Below are positions 6,448 to 33,513 of a DNA stretch of 43,335 nucleotides, piece after piece; within the stretch, counting starts at the first letter, position 1; each line of letters starts with the position of its first letter. The position numbers were made by a program, and so were the translations under genes. This DNA comes from an uncultured Candidatus Saccharibacteria bacterium (lineage in GTDB: Bacteria > Patescibacteriota > WWE3 > 9FT-COMBO-53-11), in NCBI GenBank assembly GCA_964413845.1, contig CAYPTJ010000008.1, forward strand, positions 1-43,335, in the 5' to 3' direction. The notes under the pieces are model-generated. The model saw nothing but the letters and a program-made list of their open reading frames with translations. It did no database searches and was not told the origin of the DNA.

Positions 6448-6748
6448 TGGTCGGGGATCGCGGACTTGTCATGCCAAAGGCAGATCCACCTTTGGTGGAA
6501 ACCGCGGACCTTCCGACTAAATTTTGGTCGGGGTGGAGGGAATTGAACCCACTACTTCTCGGTCCCAAACCGAGCGTTCTACCGATGAACTACACCCCGA
6601 CGAACGTTAGTGAGGCGGGATGCTAGGTTCGCCGCTAGGCGAGCCGTCCACCCCGGAATTGTTATAGGACTGCTCTTAGCCTCCGCCAAAGGCGGATCGC
6701 CCCTGCCTTGCCGGCAGGCAGGTCTGGTGGAAACTGAGCTAATCCCCG
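6448..6748 (-). pseudogene. interrupted outer tRNA-Pro-like gene; anticodon not reconstructable
   Basis: 5' CGGGGATTAGCTCAGTT..GGCTAAGAGCA and 3' GGAAGGTCCGCGGTT|CAAGTCCGCGATCCCCGACCA have complementary acceptor strands. Inserts lie in the D-loop (6682-6731), the T-loop (6469-6499) and the anticodon arm. Confidence 0.75.
6525..6599 (-). tRNA. tRNA-Pro(TGG), intact, nested
   Basis: 75 nt, anticodon arm CTCGG-TT-TGG-GA-CCGAG, CCA end. Confidence 0.95.
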
Positions 6749-6807: not shown

Positions 6808-6909
6808 TGGTGGGCGGAGAGGGATTTCCTTCGACCACGCTCAGGATAAACTTCTCATCCCTCCCAGCCATGGTGAGCCTGCCGAATCCATGGTGGGCGG
6901 AGAGGGATT
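6807..6909. mobile_element. miniature element flanked by a 20-bp duplication that includes the tRNA-Leu 3' end
   Basis: ATGGTGGGCGGAGAGGGATT at 6807 and 6890. The interior has TCCTTCGA..GCTCAGGAT and ATGGTGAGCCTGCCGAATCCA. Confidence 0.65.
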
Positions 6910-7269: not shown

Positions 7270-8331
7270 CTAACGTGAAAGACGAACGCCAACAAGTCGA
7301 ACCTCTCTTTTGCGGTTGAGAAATGGAAGAAGGAGCTTGAGGGCAATCTTTTTAAACTGTGCAAGCTCTGTTATTCCCCCCTTCGCTGTTTCGGCTTTGG
7401 TGTGAGTTTCAAAGTTTTGGTAACGGACGGTGACGGTAACCGTCTCAAACCTTAATTTACTGGCAATAACCTCCTCCCACACCTCAGAAGAAAGATCAAG
7501 AAGAGCTTTGGCGATAAGGTTGGGATCGGCAGTGTCTTTTTCGAAAGTGATCTGTTTTCCAACTGATTTTATCGGTTGTATCTCTCCAACTGGGGTATCA
7601 TCCTTGCCGCGTGCGAGGTCAGAAAGGATACTACCAAACGACCCAATAATCTCTCTTAATTCTTCTTTTGTTAACCTCCGCAGATCAGAAACTGTTTTTA
7701 TCTTTTTAGTATAGAAGCGTTGAGCTGTCTTTGGTCCAATTCCAGGAATCTCTTGGATATCCAAAGGAGCTAAAAAGGCAAGAACCACACCAGGGACAAC
7801 TACAGTTAATCCATCCGGTTTGCTTTGCCCAGAGGCGATTTTAGCGACAAGCTTATTGGGTCCAATACCAACTGTTGCGGTGAGTTTCTGTTTTTCTCTA
7901 ATTAGTTTTTTTAGCTTAACTGCCAGATCAGCGGCTTTGCGGTAGGATCCCAGATGGGAGAGGTCTAGGAAGAACTCATCAGTACTTGCTTGCTCAACTA
8001 AAGGAACCTCCAAATGAAGGAGGCTAAGAATCTCCTGTGAAACACGATGATATTTTTCGATATCCGGTTGAAGAAAGATCGCCTGAGGAGCAAGGTGATA
8101 AGCTTGGGAGATTGGCATTGCACTTTTTATCCCAAATTTTCTTGCCTCATAATTGGCAGTTGAGACCACTCCTCGCCCGGTAGGGCGAAGCTCGCCCCCT
8201 TCGGGGGCGGCCCTCACCTTAGGATCGGCTCCAACCACAATCGGTTTTCCTGAAAACTGAGGATTGTCCCGCTCTTCAATTGCCGCATAAAAAGCATCCA
8301 TATCAAGGTGGGCAACGATTCGGTTTACCAT
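7270..8331 (-). CDS. dinB: DNA polymerase IV (Y family)
   Basis: HLDMDAFYAAIE, STANYEARKFG, STDEFFLD, NKLVAKIAS, KPDG. Confidence 0.95.
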   Translation of the reverse strand: MVNRIVAHLDMDAFYAAIEERDNPQFSGKPIVVGADPKVRAAPEGGELRPTGRGVVSTANYEARKFGIKSAMPISQAYHLAPQAIFLQPDIEKYHRVSQEILSLLHLEVPLVEQASTDEFFLDLSHLGSYRKAADLAVKLKKLIREKQKLTATVGIGPNKLVAKIASGQSKPDGLTVVVPGVVLAFLAPLDIQEIPGIGPKTAQRFYTKKIKTVSDLRRLTKEELREIIGSFGSILSDLARGKDDTPVGEIQPIKSVGKQITFEKDTADPNLIAKALLDLSSEVWEEVIASKLRFETVTVTVRYQNFETHTKAETAKGGITELAQFKKIALKLLLPFLNRKREVRLVGVRLSR

Positions 8332-8367
8332 CCTTTTAAGTCTATCAGGTGTGTTAGGATAACTTCT

Positions 8368-9276
8368 GTGTTTGTTAAGGTTTCGGCGATTATTCCTGTT
8401 TTCAACGAAGAGAAGACAGTTGCTAAAGTGATGGAGACACTTTTGCGATCTCCTTTGATTGGGGAGGTGATTTGTATCAATGACGCCTCAACCGACAAAA
8501 GCTATCAAATCCTCAAAAAGTTTGGGAGAAAAATAAAACTTCTCAATTTTGAGAAAAATAGAGGGAAGGGAGCGGCGCTAGCAGAGGGGGTAAGGGCTGC
8601 CAAAGGGGAGATTGTCGCCTTCTTTGATGCTGATCTTGTAACGCTTACTCCTGGGCATGTCGGAGATCTTATAAAACCCCTCATTCGCAAACAAGCAAGA
8701 GTGACGTTGGGTTATTCCAATAAGGATACTCCCGTTGAAAGGATCAAAGATCTTAAAATTTCAATGTTTGGCAGCGCCTTCACTTTCCAAATCGGCCACA
8801 AGTTCCCCTATCTTGTTTCCCAAAGCTTAACCGGCGAGCGTGCATTTTTAAGGAAGGATCTCCTTCCTTATCTTAACCGGTTGGAGAAGCTAAGATTTGG
8901 GGTTGAGGTCTTCTTTAACAATCACTTTAAAGATGTAGCAGGGGTGGTTTTGCCTAATCTTTGCCAAGTCTCAAAATTTGAGAAGTTTTCCCTTCGTGAG
9001 GCAGTTCGGGAATACATCAAAGAGGGGGTGGAGATTGCTCAGGAGATTGGGAGACAAGAGAAAGCCCGCTGGCAAGATCTTAGGCTTCTGGAAAAGCTTA
9101 TCGAGACGGAAATTGATATTCCTCCTGATGAAATCATAGATTTTAGTCCGTTGCAAAAAAGGATCAATGAGATTCGCAATAAACGGATGCGAAAATTCCT
9201 TAAGGAGTATTTCGTGAAATATCTTAACCGATTTACCTCCCGTCTTGCGACCTTCAAAGATAAACTGAAAGTTTAG
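8368..9276 (+). CDS. glycosyltransferase family 2
   Basis: IIPVFNEE, INDASTD, NRGKGAA, FFDAD. GTG start at 8368 chosen to avoid overlap with dinB. Confidence 0.88.
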   Translation: MFVKVSAIIPVFNEEKTVAKVMETLLRSPLIGEVICINDASTDKSYQILKKFGRKIKLLNFEKNRGKGAALAEGVRAAKGEIVAFFDADLVTLTPGHVGDLIKPLIRKQARVTLGYSNKDTPVERIKDLKISMFGSAFTFQIGHKFPYLVSQSLTGERAFLRKDLLPYLNRLEKLRFGVEVFFNNHFKDVAGVVLPNLCQVSKFEKFSLREAVREYIKEGVEIAQEIGRQEKARWQDLRLLEKLIETEIDIPPDEIIDFSPLQKRINEIRNKRMRKFLKEYFVKYLNRFTSRLATFKDKLKV

Positions 9277-9350
9277 TGGCTGGGAGGCTTGGATTCGAAC
9301 CAAGATTTCCAGATCCAAATTCTGGCGTGCTACCGTTACACCACCCCCCA
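9277..9350 (-). tRNA. tRNA-Gln(TTG)
   Basis: 74 nt, U1-A72, anticodon arm CCAGA-AT-TTG-GA-TCTGG, ends GCCA. Confidence 0.95.
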
Positions 9351-9356
9351 TTAAAG

Positions 9357-9605
9357 CTAAATTTTATCTTTGAATAATTTCTTTAGGAATCTCCTTCCCA
9401 CTCCAGATTTCAAATAATGTTCCCGACGCCCCGCTTCCTTAAGAGTTTGATATTCCTCCGAATGCAACAACTCCCAAGGTTTATATCTTTTCGTGAAGCG
9501 CATCTTTCCAGAATTATGCTCTTTCAGTCTTCGTTTAATATCATCTGTTACCCCAACGTAAGATTTTCTGGCCCGAACACTTTTTAATACATAAACGTGA
9601 TACAT
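9357..9605 (-). CDS. stand-alone GIY-YIG nuclease (YhbQ/UPF0213-like)
   Basis: VYVL...YVGVT...RRLKEHN...FTKRYKPW...RE..LKSG.GR signature. Confidence 0.92.
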   Translation of the reverse strand: MYHVYVLKSVRARKSYVGVTDDIKRRLKEHNSGKMRFTKRYKPWELLHSEEYQTLKEAGRREHYLKSGVGRRFLKKLFKDKI

Positions 9606-9606
9606 A

Positions 9607-9678
9607 CGCTGTCCTATCCGCCCCGCCTTTAGGCGGGCGAGATCTCGCCCGAAGGGCGGACCGTTAGACGACCCGGCA
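9607..9678 (-). pseudogene. orphan tRNA 5' half (Gln-like) with a 44-bp D-loop palindrome insert
   Basis: TGCCGGGTCGTCTAACGG|TAGGACAGCG after removing 9617-9660; D-stem GTCT/GGAC. No matching 3' half was seen. Confidence 0.6.
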
Positions 9679-9786
9679 ACGCCTTAAAACAATAATATCA
9701 GGAAAAAAAAGAAGCAACAAACGCCCTCCTTAGTATACAGGAAAGACGTACATCGGAACTTAGGTTTACACTAATTCAACGTTTCT

Positions 9787-10230
9787 CTATTTGACTTCGA
9801 TAGATTCGCCAAGTTCCGCGCCGCACGCTTTGATAATAGGACTGTTGTTTGAGCCAATTTTTACGCTGTACCTGGTTTCGGCAGCACTTCCGGTTGATGG
9901 ATCTTGGGGGATGGAAGCAAGGTACTTAGCCAACGGTGTTGAAAGATCAGCACAAGCCGCTACTGTTCCGCAATCGTCGCATCCGCTTGCTGCGGTACCA
10001 AGTTGCGTCTCCGACATCCCAGAGCTAAGACCGGTCGGAAGAGCCCCACCGTTATCAACAATGTATTCATTAATTGCGGTCCGGACGCTGTTGACGTCGT
10101 TCCAACGCCGAGCGTTTCGCGCTTGGGCAAACCTTGTCACTGGATCAAGAGCGACAAAAATAACCGCCGCCAAAATGGCGATGATCACGATAACAACGAG
10201 AAGCTCAATTAAAGTAAATCCTTTTCGCAA
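9787..10230 (-). CDS. type IV major pilin-like protein
   Basis: KGFTLIELLVVIVIIAILA prepilin motif. Confidence 0.92.
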   Translation of the reverse strand: MRKGFTLIELLVVIVIIAILAAVIFVALDPVTRFAQARNARRWNDVNSVRTAINEYIVDNGGALPTGLSSGMSETQLGTAASGCDDCGTVAACADLSTPLAKYLASIPQDPSTGSAAETRYSVKIGSNNSPIIKACGAELGESIEVK

Positions 10231-10292
10231 ATTCTTTCACCCCCTTTCGGATTAGAGAACATTCTTATTTGAGCAAAATATTAGATCGGGAG

Positions 10293-11216
10293 TCAAGTCT
10301 TGATCAGATTGAGCGGTTGCTCCTGCCCGCTCAAAAGTGCTAATCCCAAAACATTAACAAAGGTTACTTTTGATAAATCTCCAAAATTAACTTTAATTGG
10401 AAGTTTGAAGGTTTTAAACACTTCTTCTGCTGAAATTACACTTACCTTTAATTTAGATTCAAATTCAGCAGGTTTAGCGGTCAAACTCCCCCCTCCACCG
10501 AGAATCACCTGTTTGATACATCCTCCTATCTGCGTGCAGGCAAAGGCAAACAGATTTTCTATTTGGGCGAAAAGTTTATCAGTTTGGACTGGCTCGGAAA
10601 AGGTTTCCACAACCCCTTGCTGATCCATTAAGGTCGCGGTAGTAATCTTTTCTCCCACATCAAGGTAAAGAACAGCTCCCCCTGCTTTTATCAAAGGACT
10701 AAGAAAGCTATAGGCGGCAACCGATTCCGGAACGGCAAGTTTGGGCTCAAGGCCAAGATCGTTGAAAAGCTCTATATAACCGTTGATGATCACAGTTGGG
10801 ACCGCCGCTAGAAGAATCTCTCCTTCTTCTTTTCCTTCCTTCTTTTGACCAAGAATAAGATAGTTGTAAGTTAATTCTTCTATTGGCTGGGGAATTAGTT
10901 TCTCTGCTTGAGATTTAATCAGACTAAAAACAGTTTGGCTGTCGTGCTTTTGAGAAAGCGCAAAGCGGTGGGTGTAAACGCGTTTGTCAGGGAGGGTAAA
11001 GGCACATTCCCTATCTTTCATTGGCTTGGGTTTTGCGTTTTTTAGAAGATCAACGACGATCTTTTTTAGGGCATTTTTGTCTTTAATCTCCCCTTCCTCT
11101 ATTGGGCCATTTTTAAATTCGCTACGGTTGAAAGCTGTCACCGCCTCTCCAGTAAGAAAACTCTTGGAGAGGCGAATCGCCTCAATTGATGTATCGGAGA
11201 TATCGAAGAAAAGCAT
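10293..11216 (-). CDS. pilM: PilM-like pilus assembly protein
   Basis: FDISDTSIE start, actin-like ILGGGGS motif, operon context. Confidence 0.7.
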   Translation of the reverse strand: MLFFDISDTSIEAIRLSKSFLTGEAVTAFNRSEFKNGPIEEGEIKDKNALKKIVVDLLKNAKPKPMKDRECAFTLPDKRVYTHRFALSQKHDSQTVFSLIKSQAEKLIPQPIEELTYNYLILGQKKEGKEEGEILLAAVPTVIINGYIELFNDLGLEPKLAVPESVAAYSFLSPLIKAGGAVLYLDVGEKITTATLMDQQGVVETFSEPVQTDKLFAQIENLFAFACTQIGGCIKQVILGGGGSLTAKPAEFESKLKVSVISAEEVFKTFKLPIKVNFGDLSKVTFVNVLGLALLSGQEQPLNLIKT

Positions 11217-11226
11217 TTGGTTTTTT

Positions 11227-11312
11227 GGTTGTTCGGTTGTCTGGTTGTTTGGTTATTGAAGACCGAATCACTAGATCACCGAATAACCGAACCACTAAAC
11301 CACCAGACAACT
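11227..11312. repeat. degenerate 8-mer tandem repeats
   Basis: GGTTGTTC/GGTTGTCT/GGTTGTTT followed by ACCGAATC/ACCGAATA-like units. Confidence 0.7.
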
Positions 11313-11736
11313 ACTCCACCTCTTTCCAACTAAGAATGCTGATTTCATTTCCACGGTTTATTTTAACTTCAATCTTCTTCGTATGTCCAGAAGCGGTAGC
11401 GGTTGTGGTTATTGTCCAGTTATTGCCATCTTTCGCCACCCCAACTACACAAGAGCCCTCCGGATAATTTTCTGTTCCTCCCGTGTAGCTTCCATCATAG
11501 TATGAGGAAAGAAGGGCATCCTCGGCACAACCCTCAGCAAGGGCAAGGGCGAAGTGCCCACGCTTTTCGGCAAGCCCCATCTGGGCTTCGGAGACTCCCA
11601 GAATCGCAAGGGTAACACCGATAACTAAAACCACCGCCGAAATAATCAGAAAACTAACAAGGGCGATATACCCCCGCTTCGCGGGAGTAATTGAGCTATT
11701 GAGTAATTGAGTTATTGAGTAACTTACACTTCGCAT
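11311..11736 (-). CDS. PilX/GspK-like minor pilin
   Basis: RGYIALVSFLII, AEGCAEDAL and C-terminal SWKEV. Confidence 0.75.
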   Translation of the reverse strand: MRSVSYSITQLLNSSITPAKRGYIALVSFLIISAVVLVIGVTLAILGVSEAQMGLAEKRGHFALALAEGCAEDALLSSYYDGSYTGGTENYPEGSCVVGVAKDGNNWTITTTATASGHTKKIEVKINRGNEISILSWKEVE

Positions 11737-23927: not shown

Positions 23928-24904
23928 TGATAACTTTCCAGTTGAGAAAGATTCAACAGCCCATCAGTTCCCCCAATCTTAGTAATTTCGGAACTAGCAT
24001 TTTTTGCGGCCAAAAGAAGGGATTCGGGGATGCCTTTCCCTAAGATAATTCCTGCGGTAAGGGTGGCAGCAAAGGCATCTCCTGCTCCAGTACGGTCTAC
24101 CACCTCAACTTCAGGAGTTGCTTCCTGGTGGTAAAAGTCCTTTCCATCGTAGGCAAAGGAACCTTCTACATCCTGGGTGATCACAGGAATCCCCACCCCA
24201 AGTTTTTTGAACTCCACCAGCATCTCTTTAATGGAGTAGCCTCCCCCTAAAATTGATTGTGCTTCATGAAAATTGAGAATTAAAATCTTTGCCGCTGCCA
24301 GAACTGGAGCAAGCTTCTCTTTTCCTAACAGTAGCTCATTTTGCCCAGGAACATAAGAGAGTTTTATCCCTCCTTCTTTTATTTTTCCTACAACCTCAAA
24401 AAGAAGGTCATTACTTGTTCCCACAAGATCGGCAAAAAAGATCCATCGGCAGTCTAAAATCTTGTCCCATCGAGGGTTCGTGTTGAGCAGATCGTCATTC
24501 GCTCCTCGGTACATCACGATTGTCCTTTCTCCACCTGATGAAAGAAGAGCAGAGGTTGAGGTTTTGGTCTTCGGATTAACAACTAAAAGTGTGGTGGAGA
24601 TCCCCTCACGTTCAAGAGCTTCTTTAACCATCCTCCCAGAAGGATCATTCCCTACCTGCCCCCAAAAAGCAACTTCTAATCCTAGGCGGCAATAAGCAAC
24701 GGAGGCGTTAAATGCCCCACCTCCTAAGTGGCGCTCTAACTTCTCCACCGTAAATTTTTCCCTCCAAGGGAAACAAAGATTTTGATCCTCAACCCTGTAA
24801 CGATCAGAGAGAAAGAAGATGTCCTCGGTCGCCGCGCCAATACAGACTACATCATAGTCTGGACGATCCAAGCGCCGCGAGGACGTCACAACAACGTCAA
24901 ACAT
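23924..24904 (-). CDS. PfkB family carbohydrate kinase
   Basis: GGGAFN, G.VGND..G, DRTGAGDAF. Confidence 0.9.
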   Translation of the reverse strand: MFDVVVTSSRRLDRPDYDVVCIGAATEDIFFLSDRYRVEDQNLCFPWREKFTVEKLERHLGGGAFNASVAYCRLGLEVAFWGQVGNDPSGRMVKEALEREGISTTLLVVNPKTKTSTSALLSSGGERTIVMYRGANDDLLNTNPRWDKILDCRWIFFADLVGTSNDLLFEVVGKIKEGGIKLSYVPGQNELLLGKEKLAPVLAAAKILILNFHEAQSILGGGYSIKEMLVEFKKLGVGIPVITQDVEGSFAYDGKDFYHQEATPEVEVVDRTGAGDAFAATLTAGIILGKGIPESLLLAAKNASSEITKIGGTDGLLNLSQLESYQ

Positions 24905-33018: not shown

Positions 33019-33093
33019 GGCCCTGTCGTCTAGCGGTTCGGACACTGCCCCTTCAAGGCAGAAATACGGGTTCAACTCCCGTCGGGGCCACCA
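33019..33093 (+). tRNA. tRNA-Glu(TTC), with C at position 33
   Basis: Anticodon arm CTGCC-CC-TTC-AA-GGCAG, 75 nt, CCA. Confidence 0.88.
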
Positions 33094-33513
33094 TCCTTCG
33101 AGACGTTCGGCTGAGCTCAGTCGAAGCCCAGGCTCAGGATTGAAAATGTACTTCGTCTATATTCTCCTTTGTGATAAAGACTTTTTCTACGTTGGTTTAA
33201 GTGATAATCTTGAGGAGCGTTTACAAGATCATACCTCGGGCTATAGCCCATACACCCGTAGATTTAGTGAGATCGAACTTGTGCATAGTGAGCGATATCC
33301 TAAACGCTCCCAGGCAGAGAGGAGAGAGAAGCAGATCAAGGGTTGGTCGAAAGCAAAGAAAAAGGCTTTGATTGGTGGGGATAGGGAGAAGCTTAGAGAA
33401 CTAAGTAAATCTAAATCCTGAGCTTGGTGAAGGATCTTGCGGCGGGTACTATATGGTGAGCCTGCGAAGCAGCGAGCTTGTCGAGCTGTCGAACCATCCC
33501 GTCGGGGCCACCA
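33094..33513 (+). mobile_element. GIY-YIG cassette at the tRNA-Glu 3' end
   Basis: 17-bp direct repeat TCCCGTCGGGGCCACCA at 33077 and 33497; palindromic TTCGA..GCTCA / TGAGC..TCGAA ends. Confidence 0.75.
33146..33421 (+). CDS. stand-alone GIY-YIG nuclease (YhbQ/UPF0213-like)
   Basis: YFVYIL.C...YVG.S..L..RL..H...RE.QIKGWS..KK.ALI. Confidence 0.93.
   Translation: MYFVYILLCDKDFFYVGLSDNLEERLQDHTSGYSPYTRRFSEIELVHSERYPKRSQAERREKQIKGWSKAKKKALIGGDREKLRELSKSKS

Follow-up and report, generated by a model that had tools for sequence, protein, structure and literature searches.

A miniature GIY-YIG nuclease gene between a hairpin-split tRNA-Gln stub and an intact tRNA-Gln gene: a candidate homing-like cassette in a Patescibacteria genome

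Why does a bacterial chromosome carry, in a row, the hairpin-interrupted beginning of one tRNA-Gln gene, a gene for a very small nuclease, and a second, complete tRNA-Gln gene? The question is raised by positions 9277-9678 of a 43,335-nucleotide (nt) stretch of DNA from an uncultured Candidatus Saccharibacteria bacterium, referred to here as the window, which belongs to a genome assembly of 610 kb that is 92% complete; the locus coordinates are read on the minus strand. We answer that the locus very probably belongs to a class of tRNA-associated cassettes built around miniature GIY-YIG nucleases and that, on balance, it is probably a copy of a recurrent, homing-like cassette that spreads horizontally among tRNA genes and always leaves one working tRNA. 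Selfish or horizontal behaviour of the cassette is likely, and double-strand-break homing as its mechanism is conceivable but rather doubtful. The elements of the locus are as follows, from 5′ to 3′.

9692-9700, minus strand: TGATATTAT, 13 nt ahead of the stub and resembling an extended −10 element, seen in the sequence; a putative promoter element
9661-9678, minus strand: tRNA-Gln stub piece 1, TGCCGGGTCGTCTAACGG, made up of the acceptor 5′ strand TGCCGGG, TC, the D-stem 5′ strand GTCT and the D-loop sequence AACGG (sequence comparison)
9617-9660, minus strand: compound palindromic insert of 44 nt, 73% GC, in the D-loop between GG and TA (inverted-repeat and folding analysis)
9607-9616, minus strand: tRNA-Gln stub piece 2, TAGGACAGCG, made up of TA, the D-stem 3′ strand GGAC, A26 and GCG, the first 3 nt of the anticodon stem (sequence comparison)
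9357-9605, minus strand: gene for an 82-amino acid (aa), single-domain GIY-YIG nuclease of the UPF0213/SLX1-like branch (Pfam, alignment, structure model)
9277-9350, minus strand: functional-looking tRNA-Gln(UUG) with an encoded CCA (ARAGORN; Rfam tRNA 62.4 bits)

The stub, the insert, the nuclease gene and the intact tRNA lie where an earlier note on this DNA, made from the letters alone, had placed them. A single T separates the second stub piece (ending at 9607) from the ATG at 9605, a gap of 6 nt lies between the end of the open reading frame (ORF) at 9357 and the start of tRNA-Gln(UUG) at 9350, and the stub stops inside an anticodon stem, as had been claimed. A contig of 5,189 nt assembled independently from run X8 covers positions 8900-10099 with 1 difference and no indel, and therefore a misassembly is unlikely. 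The remark that no Shine-Dalgarno sequence precedes the gene was nearly right, apart from a weak 4-nt match, AGGA, formed by the D-stem 3′ strand 6 nt 5′ of the ATG; such a sequence is also absent before the ATG in most relatives. The ORF may instead be expressed from the tRNA promoter. A consensus promoter scan of the locus gave no match, so this idea draws on a single shared −10-like motif, CCTGATATTAT likewise preceding the tRNA-Gln 5′ sequence in a relative (G006).

The gene itself is, as far as its sequence can tell, the intact 82-aa GIY-YIG nuclease gene that had been predicted. Its product matches the Pfam GIY-YIG family (PF01541) over residues 1-67 with 59.7 bits against a cut-off of 22.6 (3.4e-16). 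An alignment of 32 sequences was made from 6 ORFs of the same genome and 26 of 29 loci from other genomes of the host's taxonomic class (left out were L032, which has a run of X, and L040 and L042, which have no start codon). In this alignment, Y5, Y16, G18, H30, E62 and K66 are invariant and R26, T38 and A58 near-invariant (R26 in at least 90%). The window's protein keeps every catalytic-type residue, a set that we take, by analogy with I-TevI and UvrC, to be the Tyr of GIY, the Tyr of YIG, the Arg, the His and the metal-binding Glu. A profile search of solved structures returned the UPF0213 proteins 1zg2 (1.8e-16) and 1ywl (1.8e-15), SLX1 (4.5e-8) and I-TevI (1.4e-3). The AlphaFold2 model, with a predicted local distance difference test (pLDDT) score of 93.4, has strands at residues 2-9, 15-20 and 44-52 and helices at 23-32, 55-66 and 68-77, which is the GIY-YIG core fold (beta-beta-alpha-beta-alpha), and Foldseek placed 1zg2 first and then Slx1 and HIGLE entries, all of them GIY-YIG domains. 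The nearest relatives by sequence and fold, together with the single domain of about 80-110 aa, place the protein in the UPF0213/SLX1-like branch. Searches of NCBIfam, PADLOC and PHROGs gave weak, generic GIY-YIG overlaps only (the NCBIfam group I intron endonuclease model reached 17.6 bits against a cut-off of 56). The GC content of the ORF is 37%, compared to 48% for the genome.

The earlier note had also predicted that small GIY-YIG genes would be enriched next to tRNA genes, and the neighbourhood survey bore this out. Of the 8 PF01541 matches in the genome, one falls within a frame of 454 aa, another is a fragment below threshold at the end of a contig, and the remaining 6 are small ORFs (78-91 aa). 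All six small ORFs lie 0-128 nt from a same-strand tRNA gene, each of a different kind, whereas windows of that size around the 43 tRNA genes cover about 2.4% of the genome. The ORF is upstream of the tRNA in the case of Gln, Ile and Asp (the Ile and Asp ORFs end within the tRNA) and downstream in the case of Pro-CGG, Glu and Trp. In the taxonomic class, 71 of 134 genomes have GIY-YIG matches at E <= 1e-5; the number per genome ranges from 0 to 10, and some of the copies contain stop codons. Taking the best place in each of 29 other class genomes, it was found that 22 of the 29 have a same-strand tRNA gene within 200 nt, with the ORF before the tRNA in 13 and after it in 9. When a species-level genome collection was queried with the single protein, 27 loci were retrieved, from Patescibacteria and no fewer than 11 other lineages; a same-strand tRNA gene lies within 200 nt of 13 of them, which comprise 6 of the 7 patescibacterial loci and 7 of the 20 others. 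The ORF has the orientation of the tRNA in 6/6 cases in the genome and 22/22 in the class.

Partial copies of the neighbouring tRNA gene accompany many of these ORFs. A copy of the first 12 nt of the tRNA (with at most 2 mismatches) lies 44-80 nt before the ATG at 9 of the 13 class loci in which the ORF precedes the tRNA, and the 3′ end of the tRNA is repeated after the ORF at 2 of the 9 class loci with the opposite order and at 2 of 3 in the window's own genome. Inspection by eye revealed that GC hairpins interrupt the D-loop or T-loop of the partial copies, or that a hairpin replaces the anticodon arm; many of the cassette junctions fall in the T-loop or D-loop. A second cassette lies in the window itself, at 33019-33513 on the plus strand, and consists of tRNA-Glu(UUC), a 91-aa GIY-YIG ORF (33146-33421) and a 16-nt copy of the tRNA 3′ end (33498-33513). 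The tRNA-Trp cassette on contig C15 is a close relative of it, with common flanking motifs and proteins that pair on the tree (Shimodaira-Hasegawa-like approximate likelihood ratio test, SH-aLRT, 90); therefore, one cassette type occurs at two tRNA kinds in one genome. The tRNA-Asp locus (G000 C53:22560-23075, L044) begins with a complete pseudo-tRNA-Asp in which GC hairpins with GAGTC loops stand in place of the anticodon and T arms, continues with a GIY-YIG ORF running into tRNA-Asp, and ends with the 3′ part of the tRNA repeated twice in tandem, as "minihelix" copies that both terminate in CCA.

The closest homologues of the window's protein form a lineage of their own around tRNA-Gln. There are six, namely G018 with 60% identity and L051-L055 with 61-63%, and five of them come from outside the class (hosts as labelled: Saccharibacteria for L052 and L053, Nealsonbacteria for L054, and other Patescibacteria for L051 and L055). 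All six lie 8-20 nt upstream of a tRNA-Gln gene (UUG or CUG), each with a hairpin-split partial copy of tRNA-Gln. The best match inside the window's own family reaches merely 47%, compared to the 61-63% found in other classes, and this points to horizontal transfer. On the protein tree, which is poorly resolved with 79 columns, L014, L051-L054 and the window's protein form one clade (SH-aLRT 85), which L055 joins at 82 alongside L070, a locus with no tRNA nearby. The hairpin sits exactly between the D-loop GG and TAGGAC in 5 of the 7 Gln-lineage cassettes, including that of the window, and the layout of L053, TGCCGGGTCGTCTAATGG, a 39-nt hairpin, and TAGGACAG followed by the ATG, is near-identical to the window's. 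On these sequence comparisons, the cassette lineage is tied to tRNA-Gln across classes of the candidate phyla radiation (CPR), and its hairpin module is inherited at one D-loop site. The L051 cassette (JBAZNP010000002.1) is truly nested: the ORF is preceded by 7 nt of the outer tRNA, and the stretch of that outer gene running from about position 9 to the CCA follows the inner tRNA. Its inner tRNA-Gln is bordered by a perfect 14-nt inverted repeat, TTTTAACAATTTTT and AAAAATTGTTAAAA.

That the stub is of tRNA-Gln type, as the earlier note had suggested from its start and D arm, was borne out by comparison with relatives of the same family, designated here G002 and G004-G009. With the insert removed, its 28 nt match the syntenic tRNA-Gln(UUG) at 26/28 positions in G006 (17 of 18 in piece 1, by manual count), 25/28 in G007 and 24/28 in G002, G005 and G009. 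Among the 43 tRNAs of its own genome, both tRNA-Gln genes rank top (20/28 each), with a median of 14. The D stem of the stub is still paired, GTCT/GGAC being a compensated variant of GTGT/GCAC in the adjacent tRNA. The fragment did not fit the Rfam tRNA model, which reported nothing for the stub in positions 9000-10000 at E <= 10 or in the whole window at E <= 1; such a miss is expected for 28 nt split by 44 nt, and the tRNA-Gln identity therefore comes from direct comparison. Weak Rfam matches to SpF41, PYLIS_3 and mascRNA overlap the tRNA or the ORF and are far below gathering scores, and the 136 calls of ARAGORN with introns allowed and a lowered threshold were judged to be noise and were not used.

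At 28 nt, the stub falls short of the tRNA 5′ half that had been described, and the outer 3′ half that had been expected was not recovered from the 610-kb assembly. The predicted 3′ end, CCCGGCAGCCA, is a real one, being the actual 3′ end of the syntenic tRNA-Gln in relative G002; its sole occurrence in the assembly is on C27, in coding-like sequence without a T arm, and was judged a chance match. A blastn-short search found no second copy of the stub in the genome. Five of the six closest cassettes likewise hold a 5′ partial copy and no outer 3′ part, L051 alone being truly nested. Therefore, the usual design is a partial duplication rather than a split gene awaiting its 3′ half.

The insert has the length and the place that had been given for it but is not the single 44-bp palindrome that was described. 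It is a compound of three inverted repeats, namely a perfect palindrome of 18 bp at 9634-9651, an outer pair of 7-nt arms (9617-9623 with 9654-9660), and a further 7-nt pair at 9622-9628 and 9631-9637. Its predicted DNA folding energy is −14.8 kcal/mol (z = −2.3), a value equalled by 8 of 200 shuffles. The insert is homologous to the 52-nt hairpin that L051 carries at the same D-loop site (alignment score 46 compared to a maximum of 32, with 0 of 1000 shuffles reaching it), and so the hairpin, the tRNA piece and the ORF share ancestry across host lineages. The 18-bp core was found in 1 of the 134 class genomes, which is the window's own, and is therefore not a dispersed repeat.

The outer arms of the insert belong to the TCCRCC-N3-5-GGYGGA family (about 45 sites), one of two GC-hairpin families prominent in the genome; the other is CCTGCCTGCCGGC(N)AGGCAGG, and most copies of both lie far from tRNA genes and GIY-YIG genes. 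GC hairpins as a whole have a density of 1.59 per kb within 350 nt of tRNAs, compared to 0.59 per kb elsewhere, or 2.7-fold more. The exact 20-21-nt palindrome CCTGCCTGCCGGC(N)AGGCAGG occurs in 19 of the 134 class genomes, which represent at least 13 families, with up to 30 strand-hits per genome, whereas its reversed control gave 0; such conservation is unusual for intergenic DNA at this evolutionary distance. GIY-YIG matches are present in 17 of these 19 genomes and in 54 of the 115 others, a correlation that is suggestive only because related genomes are not independent. The palindrome splits tRNA stubs beside GIY-YIG genes in G013 and G117. The motif of the Ssn hairpin repeats, SRM (HGTCWY...RNCYNB), had 1 match in 610 kb (on C3, in an unrelated place, with none near any cassette) against a mean of 1.7 in 20 dinucleotide shuffles, which is the chance level. 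Another conserved hairpin, GACGCGAT-loop-ATCGCTAGC, occurs at 7 genomic sites, and in 3 cases a tRNA lies no more than 75 nt away; at G000 C2:234-256, C53:22513-22538 and C53:18621-18644, and at the G006 locus L006, it lies just upstream of tRNA genes beside a short 5′-end tRNA copy, with no ORF.

The earlier note had regarded the locus as mirroring the nested tRNA loci of the window, with a nuclease in the insert as a candidate autonomous version of them. The common hairpins agree with this (the palindrome CCTGCCTGCCGGC(N)AGGCAGG is also present in the nuclease-free nested Arg and Pro loci); hairpins alone suggest the kinship. At 1306-1643 on the minus strand, an outer tRNA-Arg(TCG)-like gene, GCCCCTG...CAGGGGCACCA, with an CCTGCCTGCCGGCAGGCAGG palindrome in its D-loop, is broken after the anticodon loop by about 330 nt that enclose an intact tRNA-Arg(UCU) (1496-1571); GATATC stands on both sides of this inner tRNA, tandem repeats of about 39 nt occupy 1365-1426, and a separate, normal tRNA-Arg(TCG) is present on C52. 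At 6448-6748 on the minus strand, an outer tRNA-Pro-like gene, CGGGGAT...ATCCCCGACCA, with hairpins in the D-loop and T-loop, encloses an intact tRNA-Pro(UGG) (6525-6599), and there is a similar nested Pro locus on C3 at about 24253-24327. The last 19 nt of tRNA-Leu(UAA) (AATCCCTCTCCGCCCACCA) are repeated 64 nt downstream of the gene (6808-6826 and 6891-6909, minus strand), with no ORF between the copies.

The history of the locus can be read in part from its flanks, which hold the following features.

9787-10230, upstream of the stub: pilin-like ORF (N_methyl motif match)
9724-9745, minus strand: terminator-like hairpin after the pilin-like gene, from a pattern scan only, marking the start of a separate transcription unit
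8308-9276, plus strand: glycosyltransferase-2 (GT2) gene, convergent, abutting the 3′ end of tRNA-Gln (ORF list and domain match)

A pilin-like gene followed by tRNA-Gln(UUG) is an arrangement conserved in the family, which allowed the syntenic site to be compared in seven relatives. The GIY-YIG ORF is absent from this site in five of them, which amounts to a presence/absence polymorphism: G004, G005, G007 and G008 have neither the ORF nor the 5′ stub, and G006, likewise free of the ORF, carries a 5′ stub of 19 nt accompanied by a different hairpin element. In G002, an unrelated GIY-YIG gene (38% identical) lies upstream of the tRNA, and in G009 a GIY-YIG gene lies downstream of it and is followed by a 3′ tRNA piece with two T-loop hairpins. 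In G004, an intact TGGGGG-type gene is followed by what remains of a TGCC-type allele, its 3′ half. Over the acceptor, D and T arms, the window's intact tRNA-Gln(UUG) matches the CUG isoacceptors of the family at 51-52 of 57 positions, compared to 39-47 of 57 for the syntenic UUG genes. The stub, in contrast, is of the syntenic type, so that it and the working gene are different alleles. Two putative histories would fit these comparisons. In one, the resident gene was disrupted and an entire substitute gene arrived; in the other, the cassette brought the stub with it, and replacement or conversion of the working gene followed later.

Downstream, the GT2 gene and a DinB-like gene stand where the relatives have a small membrane-protein gene followed by tRNA-Leu and tRNA-Pro. 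Orthologues of GT2 are present elsewhere in genomes of the family, and tblastn found no match to the GT2 and DinB-like neighbours in any fetched locus, so these neighbours do not travel with the cassette. The changed downstream genes mark the 3′ end of the tRNA as the breakpoint of a rearrangement, and an outer 3′ piece could have disappeared there. A reading of the region as an integrase island was ruled out, as no recombinase ORF is listed in positions 8000-11500.

How such a cassette might spread can be proposed as follows. A putative tRNA promoter region is followed by the hairpin-interrupted 28-nt start of tRNA-Gln, the 82-aa nuclease gene, and the complete tRNA-Gln gene that supplies the cell. 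The nuclease would be a sequence- or structure-specific DNA endonuclease, kin to UPF0213 and SLX1. Its target would be a conserved tRNA motif in tRNA-Gln genes that lack the cassette, with the cut probably close to the GG/TA of the D-loop or to the boundary of the D arm and anticodon stem. Repair copied from the cassette-bearing allele would then install the hairpin, the nuclease gene and the tRNA sequence and leave a partial duplicate, and the insertion would be tolerated because one intact tRNA always remains. The hairpin might stabilise the cassette by interrupting a direct repeat, the target site, or both, and the ORF would probably be co-transcribed with the tRNA and freed by tRNA processing. 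The sequence data show an intact and conserved nuclease, its close, co-oriented link with tRNA genes, the hairpin-marked partial tRNA duplicates, and several signs of horizontal spread, namely a patchy distribution with variable copy number, presence or absence at one syntenic site, and closest relatives in other classes; the activity and target of the nuclease, the homing, the co-transcription and the role of the hairpin are inferred from them.

Several observations weigh against such a homing-like cassette. The stub differs from the adjacent tRNA-Gln at 4 of the first 12 nt and at 8 of 28 overall; in the five closest relatives, the acceptor strand of the stub matches that of the adjacent tRNA (L014 differs at 1 of 7 positions), and the mismatch in the window therefore requires an extra historical step, such as a tRNA replacement or conversion. 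The protein has no separate DNA-binding domain of the kind present in known homing endonucleases, since the alignment and the model cover all of its 82 aa. If the D arm is the target, the adjacent intact tRNA, which keeps an uninterrupted D arm, makes the avoidance of self-cleavage a matter that needs explaining. No tRNA gene lies within 200 nt at 7 of the 29 class loci and 14 of the 27 distant loci. Clustering by isotype on the protein tree is weak (27 changes compared to 29.6 in shuffles, with 17 of 500 as low, and with a choice of query that biases the clustering toward Gln), and sister nucleases elsewhere on the tree adjoin different tRNA kinds. A cassette-free variant or indel of the strain was not seen in the contigs of 4 metagenome runs, out of 24 listed sequencing runs, although contigs drop rare variants. 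Lastly, the literature yielded no cleavage, mobility or expression data for cassettes of such a kind. The "skips 353/350" joints, considered as excision evidence, were left unused; they are intact tRNA-Gln genes of other organisms, with sides of 20-21 nt.

The main rival mechanism is a hairpin-directed element of the Ssn or IS200/IS605 kind. The GC hairpins would form the recognition ends of such an element; its nuclease would bind them in single-stranded DNA and nick beside them, and cassette and hairpins would move or be copied by way of single-stranded intermediates instead of double-strand-break homing. Genes for tRNAs would be favoured because their own DNA forms hairpins. Small, single-domain Ssn enzymes are reported to cut single-stranded DNA beside the hairpin repeats that flank their own genes (PMC11893778). 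In all 7 Gln-lineage cassettes, the partial tRNA copy contains one or more GC hairpins, the 2.7-fold hairpin density near tRNAs and the distribution of the 20-21-nt palindrome (17/19 compared to 54/115 genomes, and the stubs of G013 and G117) agree with such an element, and SLX1, a structure-specific nuclease, is among the closest solved folds. We nevertheless consider this mechanism unlikely: the SRM motif is at the chance level and absent near any cassette, the 18-bp core of the insert is unique to its genome and so not a dispersed repeat, both hairpin families lie mostly far from tRNAs and GIY-YIG genes, and the palindrome counts come from related and hence non-independent genomes. Strand transfer would also require covalent intermediates; to our knowledge, GIY-YIG enzymes hydrolyse DNA, and we know of no such intermediates among them. 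An improbable alternative is a domesticated nuclease that is co-expressed with the tRNA and serves the host, guarding tRNA genes, at which integration is frequent, against integrating elements or incoming DNA or acting in repair of tRNA loci, with the stubs as old scars. The strictly shared orientation of ORF and tRNA (6/6 and 22/22) and the conservation of the catalytic residues in 32 sequences would suit such a role, and SsnA of Neisseria is reported to modulate natural transformation. A host function accords poorly with a patchy distribution (71/134 genomes, 0-10 copies), with the differing tRNA kinds and the variable presence at one syntenic site, with closest homologues in other classes, with stop codons in some copies, and with the failure of PADLOC to match a defence family beyond generic domain overlap.

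The locus might instead be a fossil, that is, an old and inactive cassette with a decaying stub and an unrelated palindrome in non-essential DNA, whose ORF survives by chance or arrived recently. The differences between the stub and the adjacent tRNA, the rearranged 3′ flank and the uniformity of the four runs are in line with this, and the GC content of the ORF fits a foreign origin and says nothing about activity. Decay is at odds with a full-length ORF containing every invariant residue of the family, with a stub 26/28 identical to a relative's live gene, and with a hairpin that has a homologue at the same site in a distant carrier, which argues for inheritance as a unit and not for random landing, and we give this reading little credence. 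By far the least probable reading, and one that is nearly refuted, is that of a split or intron-containing tRNA, in which the stub would be the 5′ exon of a second tRNA-Gln joined as RNA to a distant 3′ part. The paired D stem with its compensated change would be expected of such an exon, the genome encodes an RtcB RNA ligase (G000 C2:13586-14440 and C54:3-176), and nested tRNA loci with both outer halves occur in the same window. Against these stand the lack of a 3′ partner in the 92% complete assembly, the existence of both tRNA-Gln isoacceptors as normal genes, an end of the stub inside the anticodon stem, which is no known intron position, and the absence of a 3′ part from 5 of the 6 closest cassettes. 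The archaeal-type splicing endonuclease (PF01974) gave 0 matches in the genome, at that same completeness, and was found in 4 archaeal controls; the presence of RtcB without it could be relevant to the nested tRNA loci.

In a more speculative reading, to which we assign a low probability, the hairpin and tRNA piece might be no scar and might serve as the "address label" of the nuclease. Read in single-stranded DNA, the label would steer an 80-aa Ssn/SLX1-like enzyme, on DNA that is entering the cell or being replicated, to the matching tRNA genes. Such a family would consist of naturally retargetable, tRNA-gene-specific single-strand nucleases that copy a "nuclease plus replacement tRNA" into rival alleles, and the nuclease-free nested loci of the window would be non-autonomous passengers.

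If the homing-like reading is true, some of the smallest nuclease genes known, of about 80 codons, live as selfish DNA within tRNA genes that the cell cannot do without. Such cassettes would be spread over many bacterial phyla, and the host would survive because a working tRNA is always left in place or brought along. Homing at tRNA regions of the kind described for SegB would be extended from phages to bacterial chromosomes, the large and uncharacterised UPF0213/YhbQ-like family would gain a biological context, and the odd tRNA stubs, pseudo-tRNAs and GC hairpins that confuse the annotation of ultra-small genomes would be accounted for. The cassettes would also point to compact nucleases with specificity for tRNA motifs or hairpins. 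The present locus itself contributes a lineage that keeps to tRNA-Gln in several CPR classes, a hairpin module inherited at a single D-loop site, and a stub and a working tRNA that are different alleles.

Among known systems, SegB of phage T4, a protein of about 220 aa with a separate DNA-binding region, invites the first comparison. It is a free-standing GIY-YIG homing endonuclease encoded in a tRNA gene cluster, its 27-bp site contains a conserved T-loop motif, and in phage crosses it is reported to drive the inheritance of itself and of neighbouring tRNA genes (PMC2330249). The window's cassette shares with it the GIY-YIG catalytic domain and a gene among or next to tRNA genes, and many junctions of the cassettes surveyed here fall in the T-loop or D-loop. 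The cassette differs in that SegB is a phage protein, whereas the present one has 82 aa in a single domain and is found in bacterial chromosomes; in that hairpin-split partial tRNA copies accompany the cassette, of which the available part of the SegB report describes none (PMC2330249); and in that the sequence kinship is at the superfamily level only. The presence/absence at a homologous site that marks Seg-type homing endonucleases was found here, and their separate DNA-binding domain was not.

The Ssn family (SsnA of Neisseria meningitidis with its NTS/SRM hairpin repeats; cd10448; Chenal et al. 2025, PMC11893778) is likewise composed of small, single-domain GIY-YIG proteins whose genes are flanked by GC-rich hairpin repeats, and its authors note a likeness to IS200/IS605 elements. 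The text of that paper has no mention of tRNA, and in the 12 of its 14 supplements that were searched, tRNA appears only in an N. meningitidis gene-annotation table (10 occurrences). In contrast to that family, the cassette has the SRM motif at chance level, and its nearest solved proteins are UPF0213 and SLX1; PDB searches turned up no Ssn structure. The UPF0213/YhbQ-like proteins (1zg2 = BH0048; 1ywl = EF2693) and SLX1 are the best profile and fold matches and have the same size and single-domain build. UPF0213 proteins have no established function, and eukaryotic SLX1 acts together with SLX4 on branched DNA; no link between these proteins and tRNA genes emerged from the searches of the present analysis.

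Integrative elements that target tRNA genes at att sites share with the cassette a partial tRNA direct repeat bordering the inserted DNA and a tRNA that stays functional. They usually duplicate the 3′ part of the tRNA, whereas the 5′ part is duplicated here, the insert is about 330 nt, the duplicates carry hairpins, and no integrase or recombinase ORF is listed in positions 8000-11500. A full-text literature search, within the portions of text accessible to it, found no description of bacterial tRNA-nested mini GIY-YIG cassettes. The cassette resembles both SegB of phage T4 and the hairpin nucleases of the Ssn family, yet it lacks a feature that defines each of them, namely the separate DNA-binding domain of the former and the repeat motif of the latter.

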